The notes: a model not told the origin generated them from the sequence alone. A DNA stretch of 49,426 nt from Thermoanaerobaculia bacterium (GCA_044226625.1 JBGAGQ010000051.1:1-49426), one strand, 5' to 3'; positions 6,130 through 49,041 are shown, counted from the first letter of the stretch. Numbers and translations: made by a program.

Positions 6130-6132
6130 TGC

Positions 6133-9284
<3,152 letters not shown>

Positions 9285-18172: not shown

Positions 18173-18476
18173 CGAGACCTCCGATTCCGAAAAACGATGG
18201 AAAGCCCGTCGGGGCTTCTTCTCGGCCGAGGAAGGGGAAGCGACTACGACACTCGAAAGGATGTGCTTGAAGGCTGCCGCATCCTTCGCTCTCCTGTCAA
18301 GATGTTCCGCGAAAACCACGAGTCGATCGTGCCATCGGATCCCTGGAATCGGATCGACCGCTCGGCGAGTCGGTGAACGACATGCACCCGTCCCCTGTCG
18401 TCTTTCGCTTACCGTTTCCGATCTTCCTCGAGGCCGGCGCGATGTCGGACGTCGCGTCGGAAACCAGGAGAACGAG

Positions 18477-26391: not shown

Positions 26392-26415
26392 GCCCGGGAG
26401 GCGAAGAACGAGAGG

Positions 26416-27183
26416 ATGGACGACGACGGGCATCTCGAGGCTCGGCCGGCTGAACCTACGCCAACTGAGCCTATGAAGGTCATGAGCGAAGAAGGTCCCT
26501 CGCAGGCCGGGCCCGCCACGGAAGCGAATCGGCCGGCCGAGGAGCCGTTCGAGGACTTCAAAGGCGAAGGGGGACGCTGGCGCCGACGGCTTCTTTGGGC
26601 GGTTCTGATCGCGGCGCTCGCGGGGGTCGTCTTCTCCGCGGTTTCGAGCCGCCTCTGGCTCAAGCGGCCGGGGACCCCACCGCCGATCCTCGGCCAGGTG
26701 CCGGAGTTCGAGCTCACCAACCGGGATGGCCGGCGGGTCGGGCCCTCCGACCTCGCGGGATCGCCGTGGATCGCCGATTTCGTCTTCACCCGCTGCGTCA
26801 CCAGTTGCCCGATGATCACCGAGCGGATGTCGCGGCTCGAACGCGAGCTGCCGCCCCGAATCGGCGCCCGGCTCGTCTCGTTCTCCGTCGACCCGGAGCA
26901 CGACACTCCGGCCGCGCTCGAAGCCTACGCCGAGAAGTTCGCGGCCCCGGAGCACTGGTGGTTCCTCACCGGCGACCGAAACGCGATGTACGACCTGATC
27001 CGGAACGGCTTTCACCTCGCGGTCGACCCCAACCCGCCCCCCACCGTGGGCGAGGTCACCGAGCCGATCGTGCACAGCACGAGGTACGTCCTGGTCGACG
27101 CCCAAGGCGCGATCCGCGGCTATTACGACAGCCAGGACGAGTCGTCGATCAAAAAGCTCAAGCGGGATCTGGAGGCGCTGTAG
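26416..27183 (+). CDS. SCO family protein
   Basis: TM anchor, FVFTRCVTSCP (CxxxC), FSVDPEHDTP, WFLTG, IVHS. Confidence 0.92.
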   Translation: MDDDGHLEARPAEPTPTEPMKVMSEEGPSQAGPATEANRPAEEPFEDFKGEGGRWRRRLLWAVLIAALAGVVFSAVSSRLWLKRPGTPPPILGQVPEFELTNRDGRRVGPSDLAGSPWIADFVFTRCVTSCPMITERMSRLERELPPRIGARLVSFSVDPEHDTPAALEAYAEKFAAPEHWWFLTGDRNAMYDLIRNGFHLAVDPNPPPTVGEVTEPIVHSTRYVLVDAQGAIRGYYDSQDESSIKKLKRDLEAL

Positions 27184-32979: not shown

Positions 32980-34080
32980 TTAGGAGGGATTCGGACTCGC
33001 CGCCGCGTTGGCCCGATCCGTCGGGGCATCGATCGCGGCATCGAGCCAGCGGGTGTTCTCGCGGCAGATCGTGAGCAGCGCCTCGACGAAGAGGTCGTCG
33101 TCGTTGACCGCCGGGGCCACCTCGAGCGTCTCGCCGCCGTGTTCCTTCCAGACTTCGACGCCGCGGATGCCGAGCTCCTCGAGCGTCTCCAGGCAGTCGG
33201 TCGCGAAGCCCGGAACGATCAACGCGCGACGGGCGCCCTTCTTCGCCTCCTCGGCGAGCACCTGATCGGTCGCCGGGGTGAGCCAGGGGGTGCGCCCGAG
33301 ACGCGACTGGAACGTGACGAGCACGCGATCTTCGGGGATCGCGAGCCGCTCCGCCAGCTTCTTCGCCGTGGCGAAACACTGCGCGCGGTAGCAGAAGCGG
33401 TTCACGTCGCCGATCGAGGCGCAGCAGTCGGCCTTCGCGAGGCAATGCGCGCCCGAGGGGTCGCTCTTCCGGATCTGCCGCTCCGGCAGGCCGTGGAAAC
33501 TCATGAACACCCGGTCGGGCATGGGATCGAGGAACGGCCGCACCCTCGCGGCCCGCGCTTCGAGATAGGCGGGGTGGTCGTAATAGGGCGGCACGATCTG
33601 GAGGTAGGGCGTGTTCCAACGCGTGCCGGCCACGCGCAGGATTTCCTCGATCGAAGAGCCGGTCGCCGCCGAGCTGTATTCGGGGTAGAGCAGGAAGACG
33701 ACGATCCGGCTCACCCCCGCGCCGACCAAACGCTCGATCGCACTCTCGATCGACGGGTTGCCGTAGCGCATCCCGAGCTCCACCCGTACCGCCCTTCCGA
33801 GCCGCCGCTGGACCTTCTCGACCAGCGCGCGATCCAGCACTAAGAGCGGCGATCCCTGCTCGCCCCAGATCTTCGAATACGCCTCCGCGGAGGCGCGCGG
33901 CCGCCGCGGCAGGATCGCCAGCTCCAACACCAGGAACCGCGCGAGCGCCGGGATGTCGAGCACCCGCGGATCGGAGAGGAACTGCCGCAGATACCGCCGC
34001 ACCTCCGGCGGCCGCGGAGCGTCCGGAGTGCCGAGGTTGACGATCAGAAGGCCGACGCGATCGGCGCTGGAATCGAGCAT
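32980..34080 (-). CDS. hemH: Ferrochelatase with internal CX5CCX9C [2Fe-2S] motif
   Basis: NLGTP, FLSDPRV, MRYGNPS, SFHGLP, FQSRLG, DCLETLEE; CLAKADCCASIGDVNRFC. Confidence 0.95.
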   Translation of the reverse strand: MLDSSADRVGLLIVNLGTPDAPRPPEVRRYLRQFLSDPRVLDIPALARFLVLELAILPRRPRASAEAYSKIWGEQGSPLLVLDRALVEKVQRRLGRAVRVELGMRYGNPSIESAIERLVGAGVSRIVVFLLYPEYSSAATGSSIEEILRVAGTRWNTPYLQIVPPYYDHPAYLEARAARVRPFLDPMPDRVFMSFHGLPERQIRKSDPSGAHCLAKADCCASIGDVNRFCYRAQCFATAKKLAERLAIPEDRVLVTFQSRLGRTPWLTPATDQVLAEEAKKGARRALIVPGFATDCLETLEELGIRGVEVWKEHGGETLEVAPAVNDDDLFVEALLTICRENTRWLDAAIDAPTDRANAAASPNPS

Positions 34081-34237
34081 GAGCGAACGTATCGTATACG
34101 CAACGCGGCGCGACCGAAGGCGCCTCGGAAACGCATATCGCCACGCGTCGAAGTCCTCGATTTCCATCGTGATCCCATCGCGCTTCCAACTCGCTTTGAT
34201 CAAGCCGATGCGATGCGAGCCGAGTTCAAAATCCGCC

Positions 34238-34266
34238 TTGACCGGCTGAAATACGCCAGGTAGACT
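34238..34266 (+). promoter_or_regulatory. Putative sigma70 promoter of the second respiratory operon
   Basis: TTGACC-N17-TAGACT, about 110 nt before the second actA. Confidence 0.6.
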
Positions 34267-34377
34267 CCGCCCGCCTTAAAGATCGAGCCAGAGCCGGTAG
34301 TCGTCGGGAGATGCCCTTGAGGAAGGTCTGCAAGCGCTCACGCGTGCAGCTGATCGAACGGGAGCGGGGCTAGGCGC

Positions 34378-35025
34378 GTGGCGCAGATTTTCGAGCGCTG
34401 GACCAATGAGTTGCCGCTGCGTATCGCCGTAGTGGCCCTGGTTGCAGGTGGCCTCGTGATTGGGGGCATCTGGTACTACTTCTCCCCCCAATACACCGAC
34501 GTCGGATATCAACCGGTCCAACCGGTCCCCTACAGCCACAAGCTGCACGCAGGCGATCTCGGCATCAACTGCCTGTATTGCCACGCCACGGTGGATCGGG
34601 CGCCGGCCGCCGTCGTTCCGCCGACGCAGATCTGCATGAATTGTCATCGCTTGGTGAAGCGCGATTCGCCGCTGCTCGCGGCGATCCGCGACAGCGCGTC
34701 GACCAACCGGCCGATGCGCTGGGTGCGGGTCCACAACCTTCCGGGCTACGCCTACTTCGACCATCGCCCGCACCTGCGCGCGGGGGTCGGCTGCGCCTCC
34801 TGCCACGGCCGCATCGATCAGATGGAGGTGGTCGCGCAGGCGCAGCCGCTGTCGATGAGCTGGTGCCTCGACTGCCACCGGAATCCGGCACCTTTCTTGA
34901 GGCCCGCGCACGAAGTGACCAATATGGATTGGACGCCGGGCAAGGATCAAGCGGTCGCCGCCGCTCGCATCATCAAGGAGAAGCGACTGGCGCCGCCCCA
35001 GGATTGCACGGGGTGCCACCGATGA
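34378..35025 (+). CDS. actA: Second ActA pentaheme cytochrome c
   Basis: GTG start MAQIF, TM, QPVPYSHKLH, motifs CLYCH, CMNCH, CASCH, CLDCH, CTGCH. Confidence 0.93.
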   Translation: MAQIFERWTNELPLRIAVVALVAGGLVIGGIWYYFSPQYTDVGYQPVQPVPYSHKLHAGDLGINCLYCHATVDRAPAAVVPPTQICMNCHRLVKRDSPLLAAIRDSASTNRPMRWVRVHNLPGYAYFDHRPHLRAGVGCASCHGRIDQMEVVAQAQPLSMSWCLDCHRNPAPFLRPAHEVTNMDWTPGKDQAVAAARIIKEKRLAPPQDCTGCHR

Positions 35026-38000
35026 TCGAGCCTCTCTCTTCACCTCACGGTGAGCCCGAAGCACTCCCCGCCGAAGGCGGCCCCTGCGGCCCGGGCTGTG
35101 GTTGTTCGCAGCCTCAGCCGCGTGAGCATTGGCGCAGCCTGGAGCAACGGGCCGGCGATCCGGAAGCTCGCGAGTTCCTGGAGCGCGAGTTCCCGGTCGG
35201 CGCCTCGGAGCTGCCTGAAGGGATCGACCGCCGGTCGTTGATCCAGATGCTCGGCGCTTCCGTGGCGCTCGCGGGCGCCGCCGCATGCCGGAAGCCGGTC
35301 GAGAACATCGTCCCCTACGTGACGCCGCCGGAAGAGACGGTGCCCGGCATTCCGAAGCAGTACGCGACCACGATGCCGTTCGGCACCGAGGGATACGGCC
35401 TGCTGGTCGAAAGCCACGAGGGACGCCCGACCAAGATCGAGGGCAACGAGTTGCATCCGGCGACCGCGGGGAGCGCGAGCGCGCAGATGCAGGCGGCGAT
35501 CCTCCATCTCTACGATCCCGACCGCTCGCAGCACGTCCTCTCCGGCCAAGACCCGAAGGATCGAGCGAAGAAAGAAAAGAAGACCTGGGCCGATTTCGTC
35601 GCCGCCTGGAAGACGCTCGAAACCGAGCATCTCGGCGACGGCGGTGCCCGGCTCGCGGTCCTCGCGCCGCCCTCGTCCTCCCCCACGGCGTACCGGCTCG
35701 CCGGTGCGTTCCGCGCTCGGTTTCCGCAGGCGAAATGGGCCTCTTGGGAACCGGTCAACGACGAGAACCGCTTCGCCGGTACGGCGATGCTCGCCGGCCG
35801 GCCGCTCGCGGTCTCCTACGATCTCGGCGCGGCGAAGGTGATCCTGAGCCTCGACGCCGACCTCTTCCTGACCGAGAGCGGCGCGGTCGCCAACGCCCGA
35901 GGTTTCGCCGCCGGTCGCAAGCTCGCTTCGGTCCAGGACGAGATGAACCGGCTCTGGGCGGTCGAGAGCGCCCACACGACGACCGGCGGCATGGCGGACC
36001 ACCGCCTGGCGCTGCCGAGCGGGCAGATCGGCGCGTTCGCCGCCGCGCTCGCCGGTGCGCTCTCCGCCGCGGGCGTCGCCGTCGCCTCGCCGGCTCCGGC
36101 CGCGCCGGTTCCGGGCGTGCCGGCGAAGTTCCTCGGAGTGCTCGCCAAGGATCTCGCGGCGAACCCGGGCGCGAGCCTCGTGGTCGCCGGACGCCATCAG
36201 CCCGCCGCGGTCCACGCGCTCGCCCTGGCGATCAACGCCGCCTTGGGCAACATCGGTAAGACCGTGCGACTCGCCGAGCCGCAGGACGTTCTCGCGCCGA
36301 GCCTCGCGGACCTCTCCGCGCTCGCCGAGGCGGTCGCCGCGGGGCAGGTCACGACACTCTTCATCCTCGGCGGGAATCCCTGCTTCGACGCTCCGGCGGA
36401 TCTCGGGTTCGCCAAGGCGACGGCCAAGTGCACGAACGTCGTCCATCTCGGCCTCGCGGCCGACGAAACGGCGGAGACGGCGACCTGGCATCTGCCCGAG
36501 GCGCATTTCCTCGAGGCGTGGGGCGATTGCCGCGCCGCCGACGGCACGGCGAGCATCGTCCAGCCGCTCATCGAGCCCCTGTTCGGTGGCAAATCGGCGA
36601 TCGAGGTGCTCGCCCTGCTCGCGACCGGCGAAGAGAAGCCCGGCCACGACTTGGTGCAGGAGACCTGGCGGACGATTCTCCCCGCGGCGCCCGACGCGCC
36701 CGACGCGCCCGATCCGGACCTCGCGTTCGAGACGGCGTGGAACCGCGTGCTCCACGACGGCCTGCTCGCCGGCAGCGCTTCGGCTCCGGTGGAGCTCGCC
36801 GCCGCCGCGCCCCCGGCGATCCCCGCCGCGGCCAGCTCCGGGCTCGAGATCTCGTTCCGCCCCTCGCCCGCCGTCCACGACGGCCGGTTCGCCAACGTCG
36901 GCTGGCTCCAGGAGCTGCCCGACGCGGTGTCCAAGATCACCTGGGGCAACGCCGCGCTCCTGTCGCCCAAGACGGCGGAGCGGCTGAAGCTCGGCAACGA
37001 GGACGGCGCGAAGCTCACGCTCGGCGGCGCGAGCGTCGAGCTGCCGGTTTGGATCGTCCCCGGCCAGGCCGACGAAACGGTCGTCGTGACCCTCGGCTAC
37101 GGCCGCCGGGCCGCCGGCCGGATCGGCGACGGGGTGGGCGCGGACGTCTATCCGTTGCGCACGCGCGCGGCGCTCGGCTTCGCGTCCGGCGCCACGCTCG
37201 CCGCCTCGGGCAAGGATCACCGGATCGCCCAAACCCAGGACCACGGCACGATGGAAGGGCGACCGATCGTCCGCGAGGCGACGATCGAGGAGTGGCGCAA
37301 AGAGCCCGCGTTCGCCGCCGAGAGGGTCGAGATACCGAAGGTCGCGCCGCTCTGGGACGAGCACAAGTACGACCAGGGGCCGCAGTGGGCCATGGCGATC
37401 GACTTGAACGCCTGCACCGGCTGCAACGCCTGCGTGATCGCCTGCCAGAGCGAGAACAACGTGCCGATCGTCGGCCACGAGCAGGTCCGGCGCGGCCGCG
37501 AGATGCACTGGCTGCGGCTCGACCGCTATTTCGCCGGCTCGACCGAGAGTCCGGAGATGGTGTTCCAGCCGATGCCCTGCCAGCAGTGCGAGAACGCCCC
37601 GTGCGAGCAGGTCTGCCCGGTCGCGGCGACCGTCCACACCTCGGACGGCCTGAACGCGATGGTCTACAACCGTTGCATCGGCACCCGCTACTGCTCGAAC
37701 AACTGCCCCTACAAGGTGCGCCGGTTCAACTTCTTCAACTACACCAAGGACACGCCCGAGCTGGTCAAGATGGCGGCGAACCCGAACGTCACCGTCCGCT
37801 CGCGCGGCGTGATGGAAAAGTGCACCTACTGCGTGCAGCGCATCCAGCGCGCGAAGATCGACGCCAAGATGGCCGAGCGGCCGGAGAAGGACGGCGACGT
37901 CCGCACCGCCTGCCAGCAGACCTGCCCGACCCAGGCGATCACCTTCGGCGACCTCAAGACGGCGGACGCCCAGGTGAACGTCCGCAAGGCGAACCCGCGG

Positions 38001-38105
38001 AACTACGTGCTCCTCGCCGAGCTCGGCAACCGCCCGCGTACGAGCTACCTCGCGCGCATTCGCAACCCGCATCCGGAGCTCGCCGAAGCGCGGGCGGAGG
38101 CGTAG
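35022..38105 (+). CDS. actB: Second ActB (intact)
   Basis: ATGA overlap with actA; WRSLEQ, Tat signal DRRSLI...[14 protein letters not shown], four Fe-S motif groups, complete tail [10 protein letters not shown]...[13 protein letters not shown]. Confidence 0.93.
36687..36713 (+). repeat. In-frame 9-bp tandem repeat (GCGCCCGAC)x3 encoding APDAPDAPD in the second actB
   Basis: Read directly; the last unit ends GAT. Confidence 0.85.
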
Positions 38106-38109
38106 AGCG

Positions 38110-38829
38110 ATGCCCGCGCGAAACGCCCGAAACGCCGGACTCGCCCTGGTCCTCGTCGCCCTGGGCGGCTGCGCCCGCGGCTGCACCTCCAGCCGGCCGC
38201 CGATTCACCTGAACCCGAACATGGACGTCCAGCCGCGCTACGAGCCGCAGGCGGCGAGCGCCTTCTTCTATGACGGCGCAGCGATGCGTCCGCCCGTGCA
38301 GGGAACGATCGCGCGCGGCGAGCTGCGCGACCTCCTGAACGAGGGCCCCTATTGGACGGGCATGACCCCCGAGGGGGAATTCGCGACCGAGGTGCCGATG
38401 CCGGTGACCGACGCCGTGCGCGCGCGCGGCCAAGAACGGTTCGACATCTACTGCGCCGCCTGTCACGACACCCACGGCGACGGCAAGGGCATCCTCTTCG
38501 AGCGCGCCAAGGTGCCGACCCCGACCTTCCACAGCGACCGGCTGCGCCAGATGCCGGTCGGCCAGATCTTCGACACGGTCTCCAACGGCTTCGGCCTGAT
38601 GCCGGCGTACAAGTACCCGATTCCCGTCGCCGACCGCTGGGCGATCATCGTCCACCTGCGCGAGCTCCAGGCGAAGCGCCTCGAGCGGACCGGCGGCCAA
38701 GCGCCCGCGGCGCCCGCGGCGCCACCGGCGACCGAAGCGGCACCGACAGCGGCCGCTGGAGACGCCGCGACGGCGGCTCCGGCCGCGACGCCTGAGGCGG
38801 CGACGCCGCCCACCCCGGGGACTCCATGA
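38110..38829 (+). CDS. actE: Second ActE monoheme cytochrome c lipoprotein
   Basis: Lipobox LGGC, PPIHLNPNMDVQP, CAACH, GLMPAY, DRWAI; Ala/Pro/Thr tail. Confidence 0.88.
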   Translation: MPARNARNAGLALVLVALGGCARGCTSSRPPIHLNPNMDVQPRYEPQAASAFFYDGAAMRPPVQGTIARGELRDLLNEGPYWTGMTPEGEFATEVPMPVTDAVRARGQERFDIYCAACHDTHGDGKGILFERAKVPTPTFHSDRLRQMPVGQIFDTVSNGFGLMPAYKYPIPVADRWAIIVHLRELQAKRLERTGGQAPAAPAAPPATEAAPTAAAGDAATAAPAATPEAATPPTPGTP

Positions 38830-40691
38830 AGAAGAGGCTGCCGCTCGCCGTCCTGGCCGCCGTCGTCGCCCTCGCGGTGACGGCGGGGATCGCCAAGTTC
38901 CTCACTTCACGCGAATATCAAGCCCCTTATCGGCCGACGGCCGCGACTGTCGCGGAGACGCCCCGGGATCAAGGGATCGCCGACGAAAAGGCCGAGCAGG
39001 AGAAGGTCGACCGCGAAAAGCCCTACAAAGAGGTCGAGTATCGCGCCTTCCCGAAGGTCGGCAGCCGCGTCGCGATCTGGATCGTCGCGCAGCTCCACCT
39101 GCTGTTCGCCGCGTTCGTCCTCGCCGTGCCGCTGTTCGCGCTGATCATCGAGTTCATCGGCTACCGCACGAAGGACCCGCGCTACGACCGGCTGGCGCAC
39201 GAGTTCACGAAGCTGCTCTCGGTCTCGTTCTCGCTCACCGCGACGTTCGGCGCGTTCCTCACCTTCCTGCTGATCATCCTCTACCCCAAGTTCACGAACT
39301 ACCTGGTGAGCGTCTTCTCGCTCACCTTCCTGCCCTACGTCCTGCTGTTCTTCGCCGAGGCGTTCTTCCTCTACACCTACTACTACGGTTGGGGGAAGTT
39401 CTCGCCGCGCGTCCACCTTCTACTCGGGCTCGGCCTGAACCTGGTGGGCACGGCGATCATGCTGATCGCGAACGCCTGGGTGACCTTCATGACCTCCCCC
39501 GCCGGGATCTCGGAAAAGGGCGCGCTGATCAGCACCTGGCAGGCGGTCACCAACTACACCTGGATGCCGATCAACATCCACCGCATCATCGCGAACGTCG
39601 CTTTCGGCGGCTCGGTGGCCGCGGCCTACGCCGCGTTCAAGTTCCTCGGCGCCACGACCGACGAGGACCGCGCGCATTACGACTGGATGGGCTACATCGG
39701 CAACTTCGTCGCGATCTGCGCCTTCCTGCCGTTGCCGTTCGCCGGCTACTACCTGGCGAAAGAGATCTACGCTTACTCCCAGACGCTCGGCCTAACCATG
39801 ATGGGCGGCGCCTTCTCCTGGCTGTTCATCATCCAGGCGGTGCTGATCGGCAACCTGTTCCTCGCCGCGAATTACTACCTCTGGCTCGGCATGGGGCGGA
39901 TCGCCGGGGCGGAGCAGTTCCAAAAGTACATCAAGTACCTGCTGATCCTGGTCGCCCTCTGCTTCGCGGTCTGGGCGACGCCGCGCTCGATCATCTCGAC
40001 CGTCTCGGAGGTCCGGGCGATGGGCGGCTCGTCGCACCCCGCACTCGGGTTCCTGGGCGTGATGTCGGCGAAGAACACGGCCGTCAACATCCTGATCCTC
40101 ACCACCTACGTGAGCTTCCTGCTCTATCGGCGGAGCGGCAAGACCGCGACGGTCAAGTGGGCGAAGTCGGGCAACCGCGCGCAGCTTCTGATCTTCCTCG
40201 TCGCCGCCTCGATCGTCATCTTCCTCGGCGTCTACGGCTACTTCGTCGAGGCCGCCGTGCGCATCGCGTTCTCGATCCCGCAGGTGCTCTCGGTCCTGTT
40301 CGCGATGATCGCGGTGACGGTGATCGACGTCTTCCTGTTCAAGAACGCGAAGAAGGCGGGCGAACCGCAGTGGGGAAAGATCGCGCCGGTCTCCCAGTAC
40401 GTGCTGATCTTCATCGCCGTCACCTTCACCTGGCTGATGGGCCTGATGGGCTACGTCCGCTCCGGACTGCGCCAGCACTGGCACGTCTACGGCGTCATGC
40501 GCGACACCTCGCCGGACGCCTTCACGCCGACGCTCGGGTTCGCCACCAAGGTGGTGTCGGTCACCGTGCTGATCTTCTTCCTCCTGATCAGTTTCGTGTT
40601 TTGGCTCGCCTCGCTCGGCGGTAAGAAGGACTGGGAGCCCAAGCCGAAAAAGGCGAAGGGGAAGGCGATCGAAGAAGGAGCCGTCGCGTGA
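38826..40691 (+). CDS. Divergent cytochrome bd subunit I-like (CydA-like) membrane protein
   Basis: QLHLLFAAFVL (His19-like), FFAEAFFLY.YYYGW (Glu107-like), IANAW..FMTSP, NIHR (His186-like), MGYVRSGLRQHWHVYGVMR (GRQPW-like); many TMs; no cydB nearby. Confidence 0.85.
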   Translation: MKKRLPLAVLAAVVALAVTAGIAKFLTSREYQAPYRPTAATVAETPRDQGIADEKAEQEKVDREKPYKEVEYRAFPKVGSRVAIWIVAQLHLLFAAFVLAVPLFALIIEFIGYRTKDPRYDRLAHEFTKLLSVSFSLTATFGAFLTFLLIILYPKFTNYLVSVFSLTFLPYVLLFFAEAFFLYTYYYGWGKFSPRVHLLLGLGLNLVGTAIMLIANAWVTFMTSPAGISEKGALISTWQAVTNYTWMPINIHRIIANVAFGGSVAAAYAAFKFLGATTDEDRAHYDWMGYIGNFVAICAFLPLPFAGYYLAKEIYAYSQTLGLTMMGGAFSWLFIIQAVLIGNLFLAANYYLWLGMGRIAGAEQFQKYIKYLLILVALCFAVWATPRSIISTVSEVRAMGGSSHPALGFLGVMSAKNTAVNILILTTYVSFLLYRRSGKTATVKWAKSGNRAQLLIFLVAASIVIFLGVYGYFVEAAVRIAFSIPQVLSVLFAMIAVTVIDVFLFKNAKKAGEPQWGKIAPVSQYVLIFIAVTFTWLMGLMGYVRSGLRQHWHVYGVMRDTSPDAFTPTLGFATKVVSVTVLIFFLLISFVFWLASLGGKKDWEPKPKKAKGKAIEEGAVA

Positions 40692-41347
40692 AGGTCCCCG
40701 TCCCGCTGAAGATCGCCGCCCTCGCGGTCGCGACGACCGGCTTCTACACCTACGTCGGCCAGTTGGTACCGCAGAAGGAAGTGCATCCGCCGGAGGAGAT
40801 CGCCCTCTCCCAGGACATGAAGCCGGAGGAGATGCAGAAGGTCGGCCGCCAGATCATGGAAGGCAAGGGGCTCTGCCTCACCTGCCACACGATCGGCAAG
40901 TCGTCCGGCCCGTTCCGCTTCCCCGACCTCGGCGGCGTCGGCTCGCGCGCCGGCAGCCGCGAGCCGGGCGTCTCGGACGTCGAGTACCTGGCGCAGTCGC
41001 TGTACGAGCCGAACAAGTTCATCGTGCCGGGCTTCAATCCGGGCATGCCGGAGATCAGCAAGCCGCCGATCGGCCTGACCGACCAAGAGATCCTCGCGGT
41101 GATCGCCTACCTGCAGAGCCTCGGCGGGACGACCACCGTCACCATGCAGACCAAGCTGCCCTGGCAGGCGGGCGGATCCGGTGAGACGGGCGACGCCGGT
41201 TCGGCTCCGGCGACCGATGCCGCGCCGGCCGACGCTGCGCCGGCCGACGGTACCGCCGCGCCGGCGGGAGACGCCGCCCCCGCCGCTCCAACGGACGCGG
41301 CCCCCGCCGACGCCTCCGCGCCGCAGACGGGCGCGGCGGGCAACTGA
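40688..41347 (+). CDS. Membrane-anchored monoheme cytochrome c
   Basis: GTGA overlap; N-terminal TM, CLTCH, YLAQSLYEP..FIVPGF.PGMP; acidic Ala/Pro tail. Confidence 0.9.
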   Translation: MKVPVPLKIAALAVATTGFYTYVGQLVPQKEVHPPEEIALSQDMKPEEMQKVGRQIMEGKGLCLTCHTIGKSSGPFRFPDLGGVGSRAGSREPGVSDVEYLAQSLYEPNKFIVPGFNPGMPEISKPPIGLTDQEILAVIAYLQSLGGTTTVTMQTKLPWQAGGSGETGDAGSAPATDAAPADAAPADGTAAPAGDAAPAAPTDAAPADASAPQTGAAGN

Positions 41348-41380
41348 GATCGCTTCGGAAACCGGGGGGATGACGACCCG

Positions 41381-42208
41381 ATGAGCCTGCCGATCGTCTT
41401 GTGGGTGGTCCTGGCGCTCGCCGCCGTGCAATTCCTGTTGCGCCAGCGCCGCGCCGGCACGTTCCTCTGGACCCTGGTGACCTGGGTCTCCGTCTGGATC
41501 TTCCTCCGCTTCGGCTTCAAGGTGCCGATCCCTCACTCGGTGATCGTCATTTATATGGGGATCGTGACGCTCGCGACCGTCGCCTACGTCACCTCCAGCC
41601 GCGAGCGGCTCCAGGCGTTCTCCGCCCCCCTGATCCGGCTGTGCGTCGAGCCGAAGCGCCGTCCGCTCCTCTACGCGCTCATGCTGCTGATCCCGGCGGC
41701 GGTCGCGGCGCGGGTTTACCAGAGCCTCACCGTCAAGCTCGAGGCGCCCGCCTTCGGCCGCACGATCCACCCGGCGCCGCCCGACTCCGTGACGGTGCAC
41801 GGCAAGCCGTTCGATCTGGTGACGCTCGACAACCCGTTCCGGCCGCTCGAGAAGAGCGACCCGAGCGCGTTCGCCACCCACCTCGAGAACGGCCGTCGCG
41901 TCTACTACGAGAACTGCGTCTACTGCCACGGCGACGCCCTGCGCGGCGACGGCATGTACGCCCGCGGTCTGAACCCGATCCCCACCAACTTCGCCGACGG
42001 CGGCGCGATCGCGCTGCTCCAGGAGTCGTTCCTGTTCTGGCGCATCTCCAAAGGGGGCCCCGGGCTCCCCGAGGAAGGGGGACCGTGGGACACCGCGATG
42101 CCAAGTTGGGAAAAGTTCCTTACCGAGGACGAGATGTGGGACGTGATCTTGTTCCTCTACGACTTCTCCGGACAGAAGCCGCGGGCGCGCGAGGGGGTGG
42201 AAAAGTGA
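41381..42208 (+). CDS. Four-TM membrane protein with C-terminal cytochrome c domain
   Basis: Four hydrophobic segments, then CVYCH, LFWRISKGGPGLP, TAMPSW. Confidence 0.88.
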   Translation: MSLPIVLWVVLALAAVQFLLRQRRAGTFLWTLVTWVSVWIFLRFGFKVPIPHSVIVIYMGIVTLATVAYVTSSRERLQAFSAPLIRLCVEPKRRPLLYALMLLIPAAVAARVYQSLTVKLEAPAFGRTIHPAPPDSVTVHGKPFDLVTLDNPFRPLEKSDPSAFATHLENGRRVYYENCVYCHGDALRGDGMYARGLNPIPTNFADGGAIALLQESFLFWRISKGGPGLPEEGGPWDTAMPSWEKFLTEDEMWDVILFLYDFSGQKPRAREGVEK

Positions 42209-43911
42209 GCGGGCACCGGGTGCTCCTTCGCGCGGCGGGAACCGCCGCGGGCCTCGCGGCCTCCGTCGTCCTCTCGCTCCCCTCGGCCGCGCACGCCGCC
42301 GATCAGGTCCCCGGCGGCCCCCTCTACCAGAAGCTCTGCTCGCAGTGCCACGGCGTGAAGGGGGACGGCCTCGGCGTCGCCGCGTACCGGCTGGATCCCA
42401 AGCCGCGCGACTTCACCGCCGGAAAGTTCAAGATCCGCCATACGCCGAGCGGCTCGCTCCCGACCGACGAGGACCTCACGCACATCATCCGCGAGGGGAT
42501 GCCGTACACCTCGATGCCGCCGTGGAAGCATCTCTCCGACGAGGACATCAAGACGCTGGTCGCGGCGGTCAAGTCGTTCTCCCCCGATTTCGCAGACGCG
42601 GCGAAAAAGCCGAAGGCGATCTCGATCCCGAGCGCGCCGAGCTTCTCCGCGGACTCGGCAAAGAAGGGCAAAGAGGTCTACGCCCGGATCGGCTGCACCG
42701 CCTGCCACGGCGAGCTCGCGCGCGGCGACGGCCCCTCGGCGACCACGCTCAAGGACGACTGGGGAAACCCGATCCGCCCGGCCGACCTCACGATGCGCTG
42801 GACCTTCCGCGGCGGCCCGACGCGCGAGGACATCTACCGCACTTTCACAACCGGCTTGAACGGCACGCCGATGCCCTCGTTCGCCGAGTCGCTCACCGAC
42901 GCCGAGCGCTGGCAGCTGGTCGACTACCTCGCTTCGCTCGACCCGCGCGACGCCCCCGGCTACTCGAACCTGGTCCAGGTGAAGTGGAGCAACGAAGAAC
43001 TAGATCTCGCCAAGGCCAAGGACCTGTTCGCCGGCGCGCCCGCCTCGCTGTTCCCCGTGATCGGCCAGGTCACCGAGCCCGGCCGCGCTTTCCACCCGGC
43101 GGCGAGCGCGGTCCAAGTCCAGGCGGTCTACAACGCCAAGGAGATCGCGTTCCGCGTCACCTGGCACGACCTGCGCTCCGACACCGTCGGCCACAACGCC
43201 CCCGATCTGGTCGTGCCACCCGAAGAGGAGCAGCCGCCGGCCGCCGTGCCCGCCGCCGATTCTGCCGCGAGCAGCGACCCCTGGGGTGGCGAGGAAGCGG
43301 CCGAGCCGGCCGCGGCTCCCGCGGGGGATTCCGGCGGCGACGTCTGGGGCGACGAGGCGGAAGGCGCCACCCCCGCGGTGACGCCCGAGACCGAATTCTC
43401 CGACGCGTTGGCGATCCAGCTGCCGGTGACGCTCCCGACGGGCAACCGCAAGCCGTACTTCCTGTTCGGCGATTCGCAGAACCCGGTCGATCTCTGGTTC
43501 CTCGACCTCGCGAAGAGCGCCGTCCAGCGCTACACGGGCGCGGGCGGCACGAGCCTCACTTCGCTCGAGGGCGAGGACGTGACCGCGGTCGCGAGCTACG
43601 ATCACGGCGAGTGGACGGTCGTGATGAAGCGCGCCCTGCGCGGGGGCGGCAGCGTCTCGTTCGCGCCCGAGCAGTACGTCCCGATCGCGTTTTCGGTCTG
43701 GGACGGCTACCACCGCGAGCGCGGCAGCAAGCGGGGATTGACGCAGTGGATGTATCTGTACACCATGCCGCAGGAGGCGCCCTCGCCGATCGTGCCGATG
43801 GCGAAGGCCGCCCTCGCGGTGTTCGCGGTCGAAATCTTGCTGGTTTACTGGGTACGGCGGCGCCAACGGGTCAGCGTAAGCTCAAACGAAGAGGTCCAGG
43901 CTCATGTATAG
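42205..43911 (+). CDS. Diheme cytochrome c fused to an EbdC/NxrC-like (DOMON-like) domain, C-terminal TM anchor
   Basis: GTG 42205 overlapping the previous stop; signal peptide; CSQCH, PKPRDF, CTACH, GTPMPSF; then AVYN..EIAFRVTWHD, FSDALAIQLP, GEWTVVMKR, IAFSVWDG...ERG. Confidence 0.85.
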   Translation: MSGHRVLLRAAGTAAGLAASVVLSLPSAAHAADQVPGGPLYQKLCSQCHGVKGDGLGVAAYRLDPKPRDFTAGKFKIRHTPSGSLPTDEDLTHIIREGMPYTSMPPWKHLSDEDIKTLVAAVKSFSPDFADAAKKPKAISIPSAPSFSADSAKKGKEVYARIGCTACHGELARGDGPSATTLKDDWGNPIRPADLTMRWTFRGGPTREDIYRTFTTGLNGTPMPSFAESLTDAERWQLVDYLASLDPRDAPGYSNLVQVKWSNEELDLAKAKDLFAGAPASLFPVIGQVTEPGRAFHPAASAVQVQAVYNAKEIAFRVTWHDLRSDTVGHNAPDLVVPPEEEQPPAAVPAADSAASSDPWGGEEAAEPAAAPAGDSGGDVWGDEAEGATPAVTPETEFSDALAIQLPVTLPTGNRKPYFLFGDSQNPVDLWFLDLAKSAVQRYTGAGGTSLTSLEGEDVTAVASYDHGEWTVVMKRALRGGGSVSFAPEQYVPIAFSVWDGYHRERGSKRGLTQWMYLYTMPQEAPSPIVPMAKAALAVFAVEILLVYWVRRRQRVSVSSNEEVQAHV

Positions 43912-46033
43912 CAAGATCTACGTTCCGGTCGACAACTCCGACTTCTCGAACCGCGCCATCGCGAACGGCGTAGCCCTGGGCGGCGCGTTCGGCTCGTCGC
44001 TCGTGGGCAGCCACGTCTACGCCGCGCGCATGCACGACTACCGCTTCAAGCAGATGGAGTACACGTTGCCGGAAGAGTACTTGGACGAGGTCGAGCTCGA
44101 GCGGCAGCGGAAGATCCACGACAGCCTGATCACGCTGGGCCTGAAGCTCATCTCCGAGAGCTATCTCGACCAGATGCAGAACCTCTGCCGCGACCGCGGG
44201 CTCCCCTTCGAGCCGCGGATGATGGACGGCAAGCACCACACCGAGCTGGTCAAGGACATCGAGAGCGTCGACTGCGACCTCGTCGTGATGGGCGCGCTCG
44301 GCATCGGCCGGGTAAAGGACAGCGAGATCGGCTCGGTCTGCGAGCGGGTGACGCGTAGCGCCAAGCGCGACGTCTGGGTGGTCAAGCGCCTCTACAAGAA
44401 GGACGAGCCCGAAGGCGACACGATCCTCGTCGGCATCGACGGCAGCCCGCAGTCGTTCGGCGCTTTGAAGACCGCGCTCGAGCTCGCCCAGCGCTTCGAC
44501 AAGAAGGTCGAGATCATCGGCGTCTACGACCCGTACCTCCACTACTCGGTGTTCCACGGCATCGTCGGCGTCCTGTCCGAGAAGGCGTCGAAGGTGTTCC
44601 GCTTCGAAGAGCAGAACCAGCTCCACGAGGAGATCATCGATACCGGCCTCGCGCAGATCTACCAGTCGCACCTCGACGTCGCCGAGCGCATGGCGCTCGA
44701 CGCGGGGACGGTGGTCGGGAAGACTCTCCTCGACGGCAAGGCCTTCCAGAAGATCCTCGACCACGCCCGGAAGACGAACCCCTGGCTCCTGATCGTCGGC
44801 CGCATCGGCGTCCATAGCGACGCCGCGGAGACCGGCCTCGGCAGCAACACGGAGAACCTCCTCCGCCGCTGCCCGTGCGACATCCTGCTCTCCACCCGGC
44901 TCGCCTACCCGGACATCGACGTCCGCGCGGAGGAGAGCATCAAGTGGACGCCCGAGGCGGAAGAGCGGATGCACCGCGTGCCGCCGCAGGTCAAGGGGAT
45001 CGCCCGCACCGGCATCCTTCGCCTGGCGCTCGAAAAAGGGCACAGCGTGGTCACCAACTCGGTGATCGACGAGGCGATGGAGCGCTTCATGCCGAAGCAG
45101 TCGCGCGACCTGACCTTCGAACTGGCCGAGAAGATGGCCCTCGAGCTCGCCTCGCGCCAACCGGTCGCCATCTGCAAGAGCTGCGGAATCGCCGCGAGCG
45201 AGCCCGGAGCGGTCCGCTGCGGCGTCTGCGGCAGCGACCAGATGGAGACCATCGACCGCGAGATGCTCGAGCGAATCGCCCGCGCCGAAGGGGGCTTGAC
45301 CGAGGAGGTCACCTACGACGGCAAGAAGCTTCAGTGGAGCGAGGCGGCCCGCAAAGCGCTCTGGACCCTCAAAGACGCCTACAAGCGCCGCCGCGCGAAG
45401 GCCCGGATTGAAAAAACCGCCCGCCTGCGGAAGCTGCCCACCGTGACGCTCGAGCTGGCGCAGCAGGTGGTCGAGGACGAAACTGGCGTGCCGCTCGACT
45501 CCGGATTTGCCGCGACCGGTGACGCACTAGCCGCCGGTTCGCTCGACGAGGCGCCGGAGGCGGAAGAGAGCACCCCCATCCGCCCGCAGTTCCGCGAACC
45601 GAACGGCGAGAAGCGCCTGATCGCCCGCGACGCCAAGAACGTACCGCTGCTCTCCGCCTTCGCCTGGAGCGGCGAGGCGATCGAGCGGATCCTTCGGGTT
45701 CCCTCGGGCTTCATGCGGAACCGGACGCAGGACCGGATTGAAGCGCTGGCGGCGGAGCGGGAGATCGACTCGATCGGGCTGGAGCTGGTCGAGGACGGGA
45801 TTGCGATCGGGCGGCAGATGATGGAAGAGATGCTTAAGAATCAGGCGGCGTCGCAGGGGGCGGGGGCTGCGGCGCATGCGAACGGGCATGCCGCGGGCGC
45901 GACTGACGCGGCCGAGGCTGTTGCGCCGATGGCGGCTTCAGAGCACGTGCCACCGATCAATGAGGTCGGCTCGCCCTCGGCGCTACAGGCACGTCGGGCA
46001 GGGCCGCACCCGGAGCTTGAGGACGCGAACTAA
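43904..46033 (+). CDS. Tandem universal stress protein with three PCP_red-like helical repeats and a rubredoxin/Zn-ribbon motif
   Basis: YSKIYVPVDNS and ILVGIDGS USP starts, DLVVMG..G.G, LGSNTE; WTPEAEERM.RVP, WSEAARKAL, WSGEAIERI.RVP repeats; CKSCG...CGVCG. Confidence 0.85.
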   Translation: MYSKIYVPVDNSDFSNRAIANGVALGGAFGSSLVGSHVYAARMHDYRFKQMEYTLPEEYLDEVELERQRKIHDSLITLGLKLISESYLDQMQNLCRDRGLPFEPRMMDGKHHTELVKDIESVDCDLVVMGALGIGRVKDSEIGSVCERVTRSAKRDVWVVKRLYKKDEPEGDTILVGIDGSPQSFGALKTALELAQRFDKKVEIIGVYDPYLHYSVFHGIVGVLSEKASKVFRFEEQNQLHEEIIDTGLAQIYQSHLDVAERMALDAGTVVGKTLLDGKAFQKILDHARKTNPWLLIVGRIGVHSDAAETGLGSNTENLLRRCPCDILLSTRLAYPDIDVRAEESIKWTPEAEERMHRVPPQVKGIARTGILRLALEKGHSVVTNSVIDEAMERFMPKQSRDLTFELAEKMALELASRQPVAICKSCGIAASEPGAVRCGVCGSDQMETIDREMLERIARAEGGLTEEVTYDGKKLQWSEAARKALWTLKDAYKRRRAKARIEKTARLRKLPTVTLELAQQVVEDETGVPLDSGFAATGDALAAGSLDEAPEAEESTPIRPQFREPNGEKRLIARDAKNVPLLSAFAWSGEAIERILRVPSGFMRNRTQDRIEALAAEREIDSIGLELVEDGIAIGRQMMEEMLKNQAASQGAGAAAHANGHAAGATDAAEAVAPMAASEHVPPINEVGSPSALQARRAGPHPELEDAN

Positions 46034-46256
46034 GTGGTGCGCTCCGGTCGCATGAATAGCATTTTGGTCCTTTGAAGGAGTAGGCGGCCGGCGTGCTGCT
46101 GGAAGCTACTAAGCGGGCAACGAGAATCCCTGGTCTACAGGCTGCGGGTCCGCGGGAAGGGGCATGCCTGGCATCTCCTGACTTCTCTCAGTTCAAGCTT
46201 GCGATCCTGGGGCTCCCCAAACTCGTCGCAGAGGTTCCGGCCGAGTGCCTTTAGGG

Positions 46257-47243
46257 CTACTTTGGGATGAATCGCACGTTAATCCAACGAAGCAAATCTG
46301 GCCTTTCCCCGTTATAGTCCACAGCGTTTAGCTCCAATCGATCACAGTTACTAATGTCAATATCTACCTCTGCAGGAGGGTAGCCGACTCGAGCGCGACC
46401 TTCAAATAGGAGACGATCTCTTTCCTCTCGAATCCAGAAGCGCTTGCTGCCAGCCCCCTCTGAATTGTCCTCAACACCGACGGTCATAAGAAGACGGCTG
46501 TACAGCTTCGCCGTCCTCACGACAAGCTTCTCAGTATCAAAGAAGTAGGCGTCGGCCTGAGCTTCCCCAAAAACCACTGCTTTCGGCTTCCGCGAAATAC
46601 GTCCCTCGAGAATAGGGAGGGCAGTAACTGGAACAGGCACTGTTTCCCCAAGCGAAGCCGCGTTTGTCTTAACCAACCTACCGGGGCCGGCAGCCTGCTT
46701 GCGAACAAGAGTAGCGCTTGGCGAAGATGTTTCCATGATCGCGTTGACGTCTGCGTCTTTCGCAATCTTCACCTGAGCGGCGCCTAGTATCTGCCCGTTC
46801 TGGGCATCAATGACGCGGCAGTTCACTGCGACAAAGGTCGCCAGATTGGTGATTGTTCCCGAGAGAACTGCATCGGCACCAGACAATCGGCCAACTTTCC
46901 TTGCGCTTTCGGGATCGATCAGTCCCGTTTGGTCGAGCTTGAGTTCTCCGAGAACCTTGTCGAGCATGGCCCGTTCGACAACATCTATCTGGTTGGTCTG
47001 CACCAGCCGAGTGACCAACTCTTCCGCTATGTAGGAGCCAAAAACGGTAGACTGGCCTGAGAGTTCGCGGAAGGGGAGCACAGCAATCCTGTGCTTCTCA
47101 GCCCGCCCAATACTGGCAGAGATCTGATCAGAGAGTTCCTTAGCGCCATCTGCAAGAAGCTTTTGCGCGGCCACCCTCTCGCTCAGTGAGAAAAGCGCCC
47201 CGATTGTTACGATCAAGAATCGCATCTTGAGTCTCTTGCGCAT
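46257..47243 (-). CDS. Exported CsgG/FlgO-like protein with probable C-terminal NPCBM-like carbohydrate-binding domain
   Basis: GGAGG RBS, signal peptide, IAVLPF, VVERA.LDKVL.EL.L..TGLID..SA.KVGRL.GAD; tail VGVED..G...F.I...P.EVDIDI..C..LEL; lower GC. Confidence 0.75.
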   Translation of the reverse strand: MRKRLKMRFLIVTIGALFSLSERVAAQKLLADGAKELSDQISASIGRAEKHRIAVLPFRELSGQSTVFGSYIAEELVTRLVQTNQIDVVERAMLDKVLGELKLDQTGLIDPESARKVGRLSGADAVLSGTITNLATFVAVNCRVIDAQNGQILGAAQVKIAKDADVNAIMETSSPSATLVRKQAAGPGRLVKTNAASLGETVPVPVTALPILEGRISRKPKAVVFGEAQADAYFFDTEKLVVRTAKLYSRLLMTVGVEDNSEGAGSKRFWIREERDRLLFEGRARVGYPPAEVDIDISNCDRLELNAVDYNGERPDLLRWINVRFIPK

Positions 47244-47259
47244 GAATATCCTCCCTGGA

Positions 47260-49041
47260 TTATTTCAATCTATTGATTTTTATATGGATTAGGCGATCAA
47301 CCTCGTCGACATCGAGGACCGACGCGACATAGTGATTCCCGCCGCTCTTGAATTCGATCCGCATTCCAGCATTGAGAAGCGCATAGTTCAGCTGCTCTGC
47401 ACCATCCGTCCATAGATGTACTGTTGGAACTTCCACCTCGCCCACGCGGCTAAACTCAGCCGCCACTGACGCGCGCCCGCCGAGAATGACCAGTTGCTGT
47501 CCGTCCTGAAGGAATGCCTCAAATGGCTGTTCAAGCCCAGTCGGCCACGGTGTTGGCCGTCGGGTTTTGACAACGTTCTCCGATAGTCCCGTTTTTGGGA
47601 CCGCTCCTTGCATCTCTACTGGCTCGGGAGCCATCCCGATCCCGGAAATCGAGCGATTACTCGAAGTCCCGGAGTTTATCGAACTCTTCTGGCTTGAACT
47701 GCACCACAAACCCACCATGCCCCAAAGTACGGTGGCCGCAAGAGCAGCAACCAGAAGCCCTGCAACCCACGTCCTCGAATTTGGTGGACAAGTTAGGTCC
47801 CGCTCACGTCGATGCGCCAAAACTCTTGAGGTGCCTTGAGCGTTCTCGAACCTTTCGGAGTAAACACCCTCTCTGGGTCGAGAAGAGCAGCGGCCGAAAA
47901 GGATGCGGGCGCTTGGGCTCCCATAAACTGCGTAGGCTAGTGCAGAGGGGTCTCGCCGACTCGCCTGAAATCCCTCCTGGCGTGCTGCGAGAACCGCTGC
48001 TCCAAGGGTGGCACCCTCCCTGATATTCCGATAGAAGACTCGGGCGAAATTCGCTGCCGTACTATCTCGCACCAGCCACATCGGAGCGACAAAGGCGCCG
48101 CAACCACAGATACTCACAAGCCTCGTCGCCCAACCTCCAAGTCGGGTCAGGGCTCGGCCTTGGCGCCCGGCCCAGCAGGCGTTAAAAAAGATTAATGGTC
48201 GCTCTTGACCGATTCGAGTAGCGACCTCTCCGCTGAGATCTGTCGGGCGTAGTACGCTTCCATCTTTAAGCTGAAGGCCCGCCTCTTCGGGTTGGCCTGC
48301 TATTTGTACGCCGTGCCCTGCGAAGTGGATGAGGTCGGCCGCTCCTTCCCGAAGAAACTCCAAAACCTCAGTTGTAGAAAGGGCCTGTGGAGTGACGTCG
48401 GTCATGTCAGGATAAGCTGCGGCTATTTCCGCCAGAAAATCTCTCTCGCTGAAAGCTAGCGGTAGGTTGTGCGATGCATCTATCGCCGCCCAGTTTTCGA
48501 CAACGACTTGAAAAGCGGGGATTTTGTCGCCAGCCAACCATCGAGTAAGCTCAAATTGAAGCGCTAGAAAGTCGTCGTTCAGGATGTCTTCCGGATCGTT
48601 GGCGTCGTAAGGTTTGATGAGCTCCCACGGGATCCATGGTTCGTCCGACACGATTGTCCAGGTGCGAACCGATCGCCGAATTCTCCTATATGCTGACCGA
48701 ATCTCCTGCGGTAGCAGATCGCGCCAAAGATCCTGCCCAAGGCTCTCGAGCTTGTGATCTCGCTCAGAAATGGACAGCTTAGTGCCGTCAACATCTTCGA
48801 GTCGACTAAGTCGTTCGATCTTCTTCCAGAGGCGAGCCTGAAGCTCTTCGCTGCTTCCTTGAAAATCAGGCCCCGTGATCTCTCGATGCGCGAAGGCCAC
48901 GGCCCCTGTCGGGGAATGGAGATTGAAAGTGAGCCGCGTTCTGCCCTGGTCGAACTGAGTCCGAACTTGCATTTCCAAGTCGATCGCTTGCACCTCGTGC
49001 GTTGTCATTCCTGTCCCTGACGATTTTCGGTGGAGGACCAC
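47260..49041 (-). CDS. CHAT-domain (caspase-like) protease with one TM helix and a C-terminal extracytoplasmic domain
   Basis: SDEPWIPWEL, IHFAGHG (catalytic His), IFFNACWAG (catalytic Cys), FVAPMWLVRD, LAYAVYG; TM WVAGLLVAALAATVLWGMVGLW; alternative start ATG 49008. Confidence 0.88.
   Translation of the reverse strand: MVLHRKSSGTGMTTHEVQAIDLEMQVRTQFDQGRTRLTFNLHSPTGAVAFAHREITGPDFQGSSEELQARLWKKIERLSRLEDVDGTKLSISERDHKLESLGQDLWRDLLPQEIRSAYRRIRRSVRTWTIVSDEPWIPWELIKPYDANDPEDILNDDFLALQFELTRWLAGDKIPAFQVVVENWAAIDASHNLPLAFSERDFLAEIAAAYPDMTDVTPQALSTTEVLEFLREGAADLIHFAGHGVQIAGQPEEAGLQLKDGSVLRPTDLSGEVATRIGQERPLIFFNACWAGRQGRALTRLGGWATRLVSICGCGAFVAPMWLVRDSTAANFARVFYRNIREGATLGAAVLAARQEGFQASRRDPSALAYAVYGSPSARILFGRCSSRPREGVYSERFENAQGTSRVLAHRRERDLTCPPNSRTWVAGLLVAALAATVLWGMVGLWCSSSQKSSINSGTSSNRSISGIGMAPEPVEMQGAVPKTGLSENVVKTRRPTPWPTGLEQPFEAFLQDGQQLVILGGRASVAAEFSRVGEVEVPTVHLWTDGAEQLNYALLNAGMRIEFKSGGNHYVASVLDVDEVDRLIHIKINRLK

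Follow-up and report, generated by a model that had tools for sequence, protein, structure and literature searches.

How might the periplasmic arm of alternative complex III (ACIII) receive its electrons, and which enzyme might it serve, when its operon encodes none of ActC, ActD and ActF, the subunits that lie in the membrane? This question is raised by an operon at positions 34378-46033 (+ strand) of a 49,426-nt stretch of DNA from a Thermoanaerobaculia bacterium of soil or sediment (GCA_044226625.1 JBGAGQ010000051.1:1-49426), which was analyzed as a whole and is called the window below. Its eight co-oriented, tightly packed genes comprise an arm (actA2, actB2 and actE2) and a solitary CydA-like gene that is accompanied by c- and b-type cytochromes. 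Our results show that this combination, an actABE-only arm and a single OR-N-type module with a protein of 14 transmembrane (TM) helices in one operon, is conserved across acidobacterial classes, and it appears to be new in this form. For the route of the electrons, we tentatively propose, with a confidence slightly short of even, that ActA2B2E2 borrows ActC, ActD and ActF from a canonical ACIII operon and feeds the bd-like oxidase.

An ActABE arm joined to a bd-like module

The first three genes encode the arm. ActA2 (34378-35025, +; 215 aa) is a pentaheme cytochrome c with one N-terminal TM helix, ActB2 (35022-38105, +; 1027 aa) fuses a molybdopterin-like B1 part to a B2 part with four iron-sulfur (FeS) clusters and has a twin-arginine translocation (Tat)-type N-terminus, and ActE2 (38110-38829, +; 239 aa) is a monoheme cytochrome c and probable lipoprotein (LGGC). 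The remaining genes form the bd-like module. They encode the solitary, bd-like, OR-N-type CydA-like protein (38826-40691, +; 621 aa, ~14 TM helices); a membrane-anchored monoheme cytochrome c with an Ala/Pro-rich tail, the first cytochrome c (40688-41347, +; 219 aa; Pfam Cytochrom_C); a cytochrome c with a four-helix membrane domain, the 4TM cytochrome c (41381-42208, +; 275 aa; Pfam and AlphaFold2 helices); a diheme cytochrome c with an EbdC/NxrC-like heme-b domain and a C-terminal TM anchor (42205-43911, +; 568 aa); and a cytoplasmic USP fusion (43904-46033, +; 709 aa) with two matched stretches for Usp and two for PCP_red (Pfam) and with a zinc-ribbon-like stretch. Five of the seven gene junctions overlap by 4-8 nt, and the other two are gaps of 4 and 33 nt. 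The proteins carry 10 CxxCH motifs (5, 0, 1, 0, 1, 1, 2 and 0 in gene order); 2000 residue shuffles gave a mean of 0.04 and a maximum of 2.

Pfam and NCBIfam back every one of the eight assignments, and among the eight proteins there was no Pfam match to NrfD, ActD or CydB at E <= 0.01. Thus, the preliminary description of this DNA was right about the eight genes and their positions, the mostly overlapping start and stop codons, the total of 10 CxxCH motifs and the lack of actC, actD, actF and cydB in the operon. Its placing of all eight genes behind one promoter fared less well. A sigma-70-like match (TTGACC-17-TAGACT, 9/12; 34238-34266, +) lies in the 174-nt intergenic gap between hemH and actA2 and is the sole one in 33900-46400, where 0.8 would be expected by chance, so it serves as a hint to placement only.

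Among solved structures, Rhodothermus marinus ACIII supplies the best matches of ActA2 (6f0k_A, E 4e-71), ActB2 (6f0k_B, E 9e-294; family matches include TIGR04519) and ActE2 (6f0k_E, E 2e-51), namely its chains A, B and E. The three proteins share 47%, 45% and 41% identity with ActA1, ActB1 and ActE1 of the canonical ACIII operon in the same window, and are therefore old paralogues rather than a recent copy. Among 31 orthologues, the 15 cysteines of ActB2 past residue 780 (three sets of four plus three) and its twin arginine (RR70-71) are invariant, and the lipobox Cys21 (LGGC) of ActE2 is kept in at least 90%. The five CxxCH motifs and the TM helix (residues 14-32) of ActA2 and the single CxxCH of ActE2 are likewise retained in these orthologues. 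Judged by the cysteine count, ActB2 would hold one 3Fe-4S and three 4Fe-4S clusters. This conservation of FeS and heme ligands suggests that the wire is functional and under selection, and a wire under selection would need a partner on the quinol side. All the ActA, ActB and ActE features of ACIII that were examined are thus found in the hybrid operon, and a co-encoded ActC, ActD and ActF are not. We regard the three genes as a first module, which is a diverged paralogue of the ACIII periplasmic arm with an FeS wire and six c-type hemes.

For the CydA-like protein, the match to Pfam Cyt_bd_oxida_I is confined to residues 80-317 and to positions 2-240 of the 418 in the profile, and no match to Cyt_bd_oxida_II (CydB) was found in the operon or among the window open reading frames (ORFs) scanned. 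Hydropathy and an AlphaFold2 model (pLDDT 80, pTM 0.79) both went into the count of ~14 helices. In a Foldseek search with this model, all 10 PDB matches with E <= 0.001 were CydA chains (E 1e-9 to 1e-6). An NrfD-like C-terminal part had been a candidate and was rejected, since neither NrfD, ActC nor PsrC appeared among the 50 matches listed. In alignments to solved CydA chains, H91 falls on the TM1 histidine and H252 on the second heme-ligand histidine, and we take them to be the heme ligands His19 and His186 (E. coli numbers); conservation of H91 reaches at least 90% among 22 diverse relatives and is complete among 31 close ones, and H252 is also conserved. By alignment to CydA of Geobacillus (G. 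thermodenitrificans), Tyr171 and Glu178 are presumably the equivalents of Glu99 and Glu107 (E. coli numbering). The canonical Q-loop region is absent, in that the PDB sequence alignments stop near residue 315 and the loops of the model are short after TM6. Both marks of a canonical CydAB, a Q-loop region and a cydB gene in the operon, are thus missing.

The first four helices of the protein include the His19 equivalent, it has ~14 TM helices, and a second cydA is lacking; 78 of the 80 loci surveyed below have one cydA-like copy, and two of them (L054 and L062 in our numbering) have two. By these sequence and model features, the protein fits the OR-N family. In its His19-equivalent helices, its lack of a Q-loop and of cydB, its ~14 TM helices and its position alone in an operon with other electron carriers, it resembles the OR-N enzymes of Murali, Gennis and Hemp (2021), which are described as having no quinol site, a set of first four helices with His19, and 14 helices in groups N1 and N2, the N2 members often standing alone in their operons (bioRxiv 10.1101/2021.01.16.426971). 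For both the CydA-like protein and the 4TM cytochrome c, most look-alikes in the Atlas come from Nitrospirota, Nitrospinota and Acidobacteriota; we treat this as no more than a lead.

The diheme/EbdC-like protein matches Pfam EB_dh and TIGR03477; its diheme part matches 6h5l_B, a Kuenenia protein (E 2e-55), and its EB_dh part matches 7b04_C (NxrC) and 2ivf_C (EbdC). The 4-TM domain of the 4TM cytochrome c had no PDB fold match at E <= 0.001 and no Pfam ActD match, and is thus assigned neither to ActD nor to a known quinol-binding bundle. PCP_red, found in the last gene product, is the C-terminal domain of the tetrapyrrole enzyme BchB. In one locus (L077:2087-4811), genes for a NUBPL/ParA-like ATPase, a PCP_red protein and a radical SAM/SPASM-PCP_red protein lie just upstream of the core, and together with the USP/PCP_red gene these neighbours may hint at cofactor maturation or sensing. 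The second module, made up of the CydA-like protein, two monoheme cytochromes c, the diheme c/EbdC-like heme-b protein and the USP/PCP_red protein, would be a self-sufficient terminal reductase of the OR-N branch of the bd superfamily, fed by cytochrome c and probably reducing O2.

Conserved gene order and autonomy of the core

The CydA-like family is large. At 90% clustering, 7411 of 8000 scored candidates had E <= 1e-5; at 50% clustering, 1629 had E <= 1e-3 and 255 had E <= 1e-30. Among 609 matched stretches, with one genome per species, at least 598 held confirmed relatives. Gene order was surveyed in the best 80 of these loci, which share 63-92% identity with the CydA-like protein. The sample leans to close relatives, and distant groups such as Nitrospirota lie outside it. 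The source names of the closest relatives are Thermoanaerobaculia or Acidobacteriota, the nearest of the best 80 being a Thermoanaerobaculia metagenome-assembled genome (MAG) at 92% identity. Neighbours were found by tblastn with the window proteins, and the upstream side was judged in loci with at least 4.7 kb of upstream DNA.

Results of this survey showed that actA2, actB2 and actE2 directly precede the CydA-like gene in 45 of 59 informative loci; the other 14 have none of them, and no locus has a partial set. Downstream, in loci with enough DNA, the first cytochrome c was found in 72/72, the 4TM cytochrome c in 69/69, the diheme/EbdC-like gene in 61/61 and the USP gene in 49/54. The gap between actE2 and the CydA-like gene has a median of 14 nt (n = 42). 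Conservation of gene order, which had been set beforehand as a check, is thus borne out, and the conserved order and small gaps rule out an assembly join at ~38826, which the preliminary description had named as something that would undo its reading. No tblastn match to ActC1, ActD1 or ActF1 lay inside the hybrid operon in any of the 80 loci; matches to ActD1 and ActF1 occurred in separate canonical operons only.

In the 14 loci where the core stands without ActABE, the upstream genes sampled (10 loci, 28 ORFs) are unrelated to ACIII and include an arginine deiminase-like gene, efflux pump genes, a peptidase and, in one case, COX genes. Respiratory or redox genes just upstream of such cores were COX1-COX3-COX2 in L069 (5798-9836), NnrS and a cytochrome c in L051 (7935-10102) and a plastocyanin/azurin-like cupredoxin in L034 (8742-9287). 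Because the core occurs without ActABE in these loci, its four or five genes form a self-sufficient module.

A tree of 70 CydA-like proteins (quick IQ-TREE) splits into clades of 15 and 55 rows. Ten rows of the smaller clade are without ActABE and five have too little upstream DNA to tell; their titles name Rhodothermota, Calditrichota, Fibrobacterota, Myxococcota, Bdellovibrionota and one Spirochaetaceae. The larger clade is mostly Acidobacteriota and holds 49 ActABE-linked rows, the window among them. Nested within it are the unlinked rows L035, L020 and L040/L041; L039, with too little upstream DNA to judge, groups with L040 and L041. The tree needs two to three state changes for ActABE linkage. 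ActABE is thus an add-on to the core that was gained or lost a few times and is seen mostly in Acidobacteriota.

The two loci with a second cydA-like copy have a second, divergent whole core inverted beside the first (L054:3796-8612 and L062:3867-8716). This second core differs in gene order and comprises genes for a 4TM cytochrome c, a diheme/EbdC-like protein and a cytochrome c besides a CydA-like gene, which has 40-50% identity and falls into two pieces in L062.

Possible routes of electron entry

The canonical ACIII operon of the window (~2274-9993, -) encodes actA1 (9343-9993), actB1 (~6039-9284), actC1 (4726-6129; Pfam NrfD), actD1 (4175-4729; Pfam ActD), actE1 (3484-4185) and actF1 (2274-3494; matching 6f0k_F with E 4e-94), all on the - strand and followed by SCO1 and COX2. 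ActC, ActD and ActF are each encoded once in the window, all in this operon, which lies ~24 kb from the hybrid operon (28 kb as far as actC). In solved ACIII, ActC makes a large contact with ActB and has its quinol site 10-12 Å from FeS1 (PMC5928083). We propose that ActA2B2E2, which has no quinol site of its own, would assemble on the canonical ActC-ActD-ActF core in place of ActA1B1E1. Quinol would be oxidised at ActC, and the electrons would pass from FeS1 through the hemes of ActA2 to ActE2, and from there through the c and b hemes of the second module to the di-heme site of the CydA-like protein, instead of to caa3. The periplasmic linker found only in ActABE-linked CydA-like proteins may tether both complexes.

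A precedent exists in Chloroflexus aurantiacus, where the Cr operon is described as holding actB, actE, actA, actG, SCO1 and COX genes without actC/D/F (PMC3150298), and where the authors of a proteomics study proposed a shared ActCDF with exchanged ActABE(G) sets (PMC9316378). Furthermore, 5 of 45 linked loci have canonical ACIII genes at a distance of up to 10 kb from the hybrid operon. In L014 and L032 these genes are divergent; in L074 they share the strand and stand directly upstream, and in L027 and L023 they are upstream in the company of SCO1 or COX2. The use of ActCDF in trans is favoured because of the Chloroflexus precedent and this linkage. The arm of one close relative by the CydA-like tree, L004 (2410-7152), is mixed: its hybrid ActA is 72% identical to ActA1 over 156 residues and 50% to ActA2, its ActB is 56% identical to ActB1 and 46% to ActB2 with the last ~85 residues ActB2-like, and its ActE2 is orthologous (77% identical); the 2.4 kb upstream match nothing in the window. 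This looks as if arms were exchangeable, and the locus is either a natural recombinant or a chimeric assembly.

The 3' end of actB1 (~6133-6272, -) has an irregularity of its own. The frame is lost after '...ACPTE' at ~6250-6257. Here, ~17 residues that L014 and L074 have in their canonical ActB are absent, and 8 nt separate this point from the conserved tail, which is encoded in a different frame that stops a few bases short of the actC start; the listed ORF therefore extends 90 nt into actC. This deletion and frameshift may be a real lesion or an assembly or sequencing error. If real, it would make ActB2 the sole intact ActB in the window.

The linker (38907-39035, +) lies between TM0 and TM1 at residues ~28-70. 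ActABE-linked CydA-like proteins start with an uncleaved TM0, followed by a ~50-residue periplasmic stretch with the motif REYxAPYRP...TPRxQGxAD; the unlinked proteins either begin like a signal peptide or have a linker that lacks the motif. In the AlphaFold2 model, pLDDT falls below 50 at residues 27-45 and 63-70. A hidden Markov model (HMM) of the linker was trained on 32 linked sequences outside a Vicinamibacteria subclade, with the other rows held out. It gave 63-78 bits for the 16 held-out linked sequences, 12-25 bits for the nested unlinked L020, L040 and L041, 11 bits for L039, and -2 to 8 bits for the remaining 10 unlinked rows, namely L035 and nine from the unlinked clade. A strict TPRxxG pattern was present in 40 of 49 linked rows and 0 of 14 unlinked; the relaxed pattern or HMM score identified 49/49 and 0/14. 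A linker sequence that co-varies with ActABE hints at docking and is, in statistical terms, a lead. For the ACIII-bd-like supercomplex of the preliminary description, this linker is an indirect hint only. A co-fold of CydA-like residues 1-125 with ActA2, ActB2 775-1027 and ActE2 20-200 scored 0.00 and weighs neither way.

Several points weigh against the proposed arm swap, the first option of the preliminary description. No canonical act gene was seen within 10 kb in 40 of the 45 linked loci. The binding of ActA2B2E2 to ActC1D1F1 is itself a proposal, L004 may be a chimeric MAG assembly, and the damaged-looking 3' end of actB1 complicates any statement about two competing arms. The linker association amounts to 2 phylogenetically independent contrasts, both concordant (sign test, p 0.5). 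As to the acceptor, Tyr171 stands where we presume Glu99 (E. coli numbering) to be in canonical enzymes. Finally, O2 reduction is described as unproven for OR-N enzymes, none of which had been assayed (PMC10839748), and related bd-like genes are reported from the anaerobe Kuenenia (PMC3578206).

The last three points would also fit a reading, to which we give little credence, in which the core is not an O2 reductase at all and either reduces another acceptor, e.g. NO, or works in reverse as a cytochrome c:quinone reductase, with ActABE as the link to the quinone pool for reverse or branched electron flow. The diheme domain with its Kuenenia match agrees with such a role, and related clusters are described beside NXR genes, with reverse flow proposed (PMC3578206). 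However, the operon lies near the ACIII-caa3, ctaA/ctaB and SCO1 genes of aerobic respiration in the window and in several loci, no genes for lithotrophic donors turned up among the ORFs of the window, and the presumed His19 and His186 equivalents are retained. About equally improbable is a quinol-independent wire, in which ActA2B2E2 would carry or store electrons from periplasmic donors for the bd-like oxidase, with entry through FeS4 or the hemes and with the ActA helix and the ActE lipid as sole anchors. Both anchors are kept in ActA2 and ActE2, the core already works with c-type donors, and in solved ACIII the branch from FeS2 to FeS4 ends near the surface, for which its authors raise an external partner (PMC5928083). 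Such a wire would leave the membrane-face FeS1 without a role, however, and would serve a core that already contains four c hemes plus its own heme-b domain and works without ActABE in 14 of 59 loci; moreover, no candidate gene for a periplasmic donor is linked to the operon.

Somewhat less improbable than these two, and still unlikely, is a self-contained chimera in which ActA2B2E2 would dock on the CydA-like protein, the 4TM cytochrome c or both, which would give a new quinol site; a CydA-superfamily protein (with the 4TM cytochrome c) would then have taken over both the quinol site of the NrfD-type ActC and its dock for the FeS subunit. If true, this would be a single-operon quinol:O2 oxidoreductase without an NrfD-type subunit, built from two unrelated respiratory superfamilies and widespread in soil and sediment Acidobacteriota. 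It would agree with the need of a conserved FeS wire for some quinol-side partner, with one tight operon of eight genes that leaves no room for another subunit, with the lack of canonical act genes nearby in most linked loci, and with the occurrence of TM0 and its linker only together with ActABE; in addition, Lucker et al. (2013) speculated that 14-TM bd-like proteins meet quinone and act in an ACIII-like way (PMC3578206). On the other hand, the CydA-like model matches CydA alone and not NrfD, ActC or PsrC, its Pfam match ends at profile position 240 and the canonical Q-loop is absent, the 4-TM domain is without a fold match, and the same CydA-like and 4TM proteins, at equal length, serve the loci without ActABE. 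Nitrospirales that have ACIII genes before OR-N5 bd-like genes are also described as keeping actC and actD (PMC12342949). The second option of the preliminary description, in which the CydA-like protein replaces ActC/F, thus draws no support from a fold that is CydA only, and the core stands without ActABE in 14 of 59 loci. We prefer the loan of a canonical ActCDF core, at the tentative level given above.

Surroundings, known systems and meaning

The window has a high G+C content (0.56-0.72). Besides the canonical operon, it holds ctaA, ctaB and a second SCO1 at 24413-27183, and hemH (32980-34203, -) and a hemY-like gene are divergent from actA2, as the preliminary description stated. Upstream hemH is found in only 7 of 45 linked loci (L001, L002, L003, L006, L026, L028 and L068; loci with at least 4.7 kb upstream); in L032, a hemY-like oxidase and SCO1 stand in its place. 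Between both respiratory regions, a 2152-aa ORF of unknown family (11861-18319, -) has a weak AAA_16 match only (E 1.6e-4). Past the operon (46257-49041, -), G+C falls to ~0.56, with genes for a CsgG/FlgO/NPCBM-domain protein and a CHAT-domain protein. Counted with a tolerance of 2 mismatches, the palindrome TTGATNNNNATCAA occurs 17 times in the window, where 5.04 are expected (0 of 100 shuffles reach 17), mostly within coding sequence as far as the gene calls go. None of the 17 lies in 34204-34377, and an FNR-type box in the act2 promoter region was rejected.

Parts of this arrangement are already in print, namely ACIII followed by bd-like genes, actABE alone beside a heme-copper oxidase, and an autonomous OR-N/TO_1 module. 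A close likeness in gene content is the Chloroflexus Cr operon (Caur_2133-2144). It has actB/E/A, without actC/D/F, directly next to terminal-oxidase genes, and its genome carries a full act operon (actABCDEFG) as well. It differs, as described, in its heme-copper cytochrome c oxidase and its actG; here, the oxidase genes are a bd-like OR-N module with c and b cytochromes of its own, the order is A-B-E, and the host is acidobacterial. In the ACIII-caa3 supercomplex of Rhodothermus marinus and Flavobacterium johnsoniae, an ActA/B/E arm likewise feeds an oxidase encoded downstream, but that complex includes ActC, ActD and ActF and has a heme-copper oxidase as its acceptor (PMC5928083).

The core has its own parallels. 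The CydA-like protein resembles the NIDE0901-like 14-TM 'bd-like oxidase' of Nitrospira and Nitrospina (PMC3578206), from which it differs by its acidobacterial host and by a TM0 and linker specific to the ActABE-linked clade. By parts list, and going by the published description, the core also resembles 'TO_1' of Ca. Manganitrophus and other Nitrospirota, with a bd-like oxidase, two cytochromes c and a periplasmic CISM-type (complex iron-sulfur molybdoenzyme) cytochrome b (bioRxiv 10.1101/2021.11.15.468770); in the window, however, the heme-b domain is fused to the diheme c, a USP/PCP_red gene follows and ActABE precedes. ACIII genes are combined with bd-like genes in Nitrospirales clusters with OR-N5 and in 'TO_3' as well (PMC12342949; 10.1101/2021.11.15.468770). 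The former are described as having actABCDE, with actC and actD, an actB split in two and a paired 10-TM OR-N5 CydAA' (PMC12342949), and TO_3 of Ca. Manganitrophus as having two clade V bd-like proteins plus ACIII (10.1101/2021.11.15.468770). In contrast, the operon studied here has neither actC nor actD, a fused actB and a single 14-TM subunit. We found no description in the literature of actABE without actCDF beside a bd-like gene in Acidobacteriota, although Figure 1 or the supplement of Murali et al. may show it.

The arrangement was found in Thermoanaerobaculia, Vicinamibacteria and Polarisedimenticolia, which are common in soils and sediments. Their O2 respiration is usually inferred solely from caa3 and canonical bd genes. 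At least 598 species-level genomes encode a close CydA-like relative, and among the best 80 loci the ACIII arm is present in 45 of the 59 that are informative. A conserved extra branch would alter genome-based inference of acidobacterial oxygen use. The operon is also a natural test case for two questions: can ACIII arms be exchanged on a single membrane core, and what are the role and electron donors of OR-N 'bd-like oxidases'? For both, cores with and without ActABE and the ActABE-associated linker supply concrete constructs.

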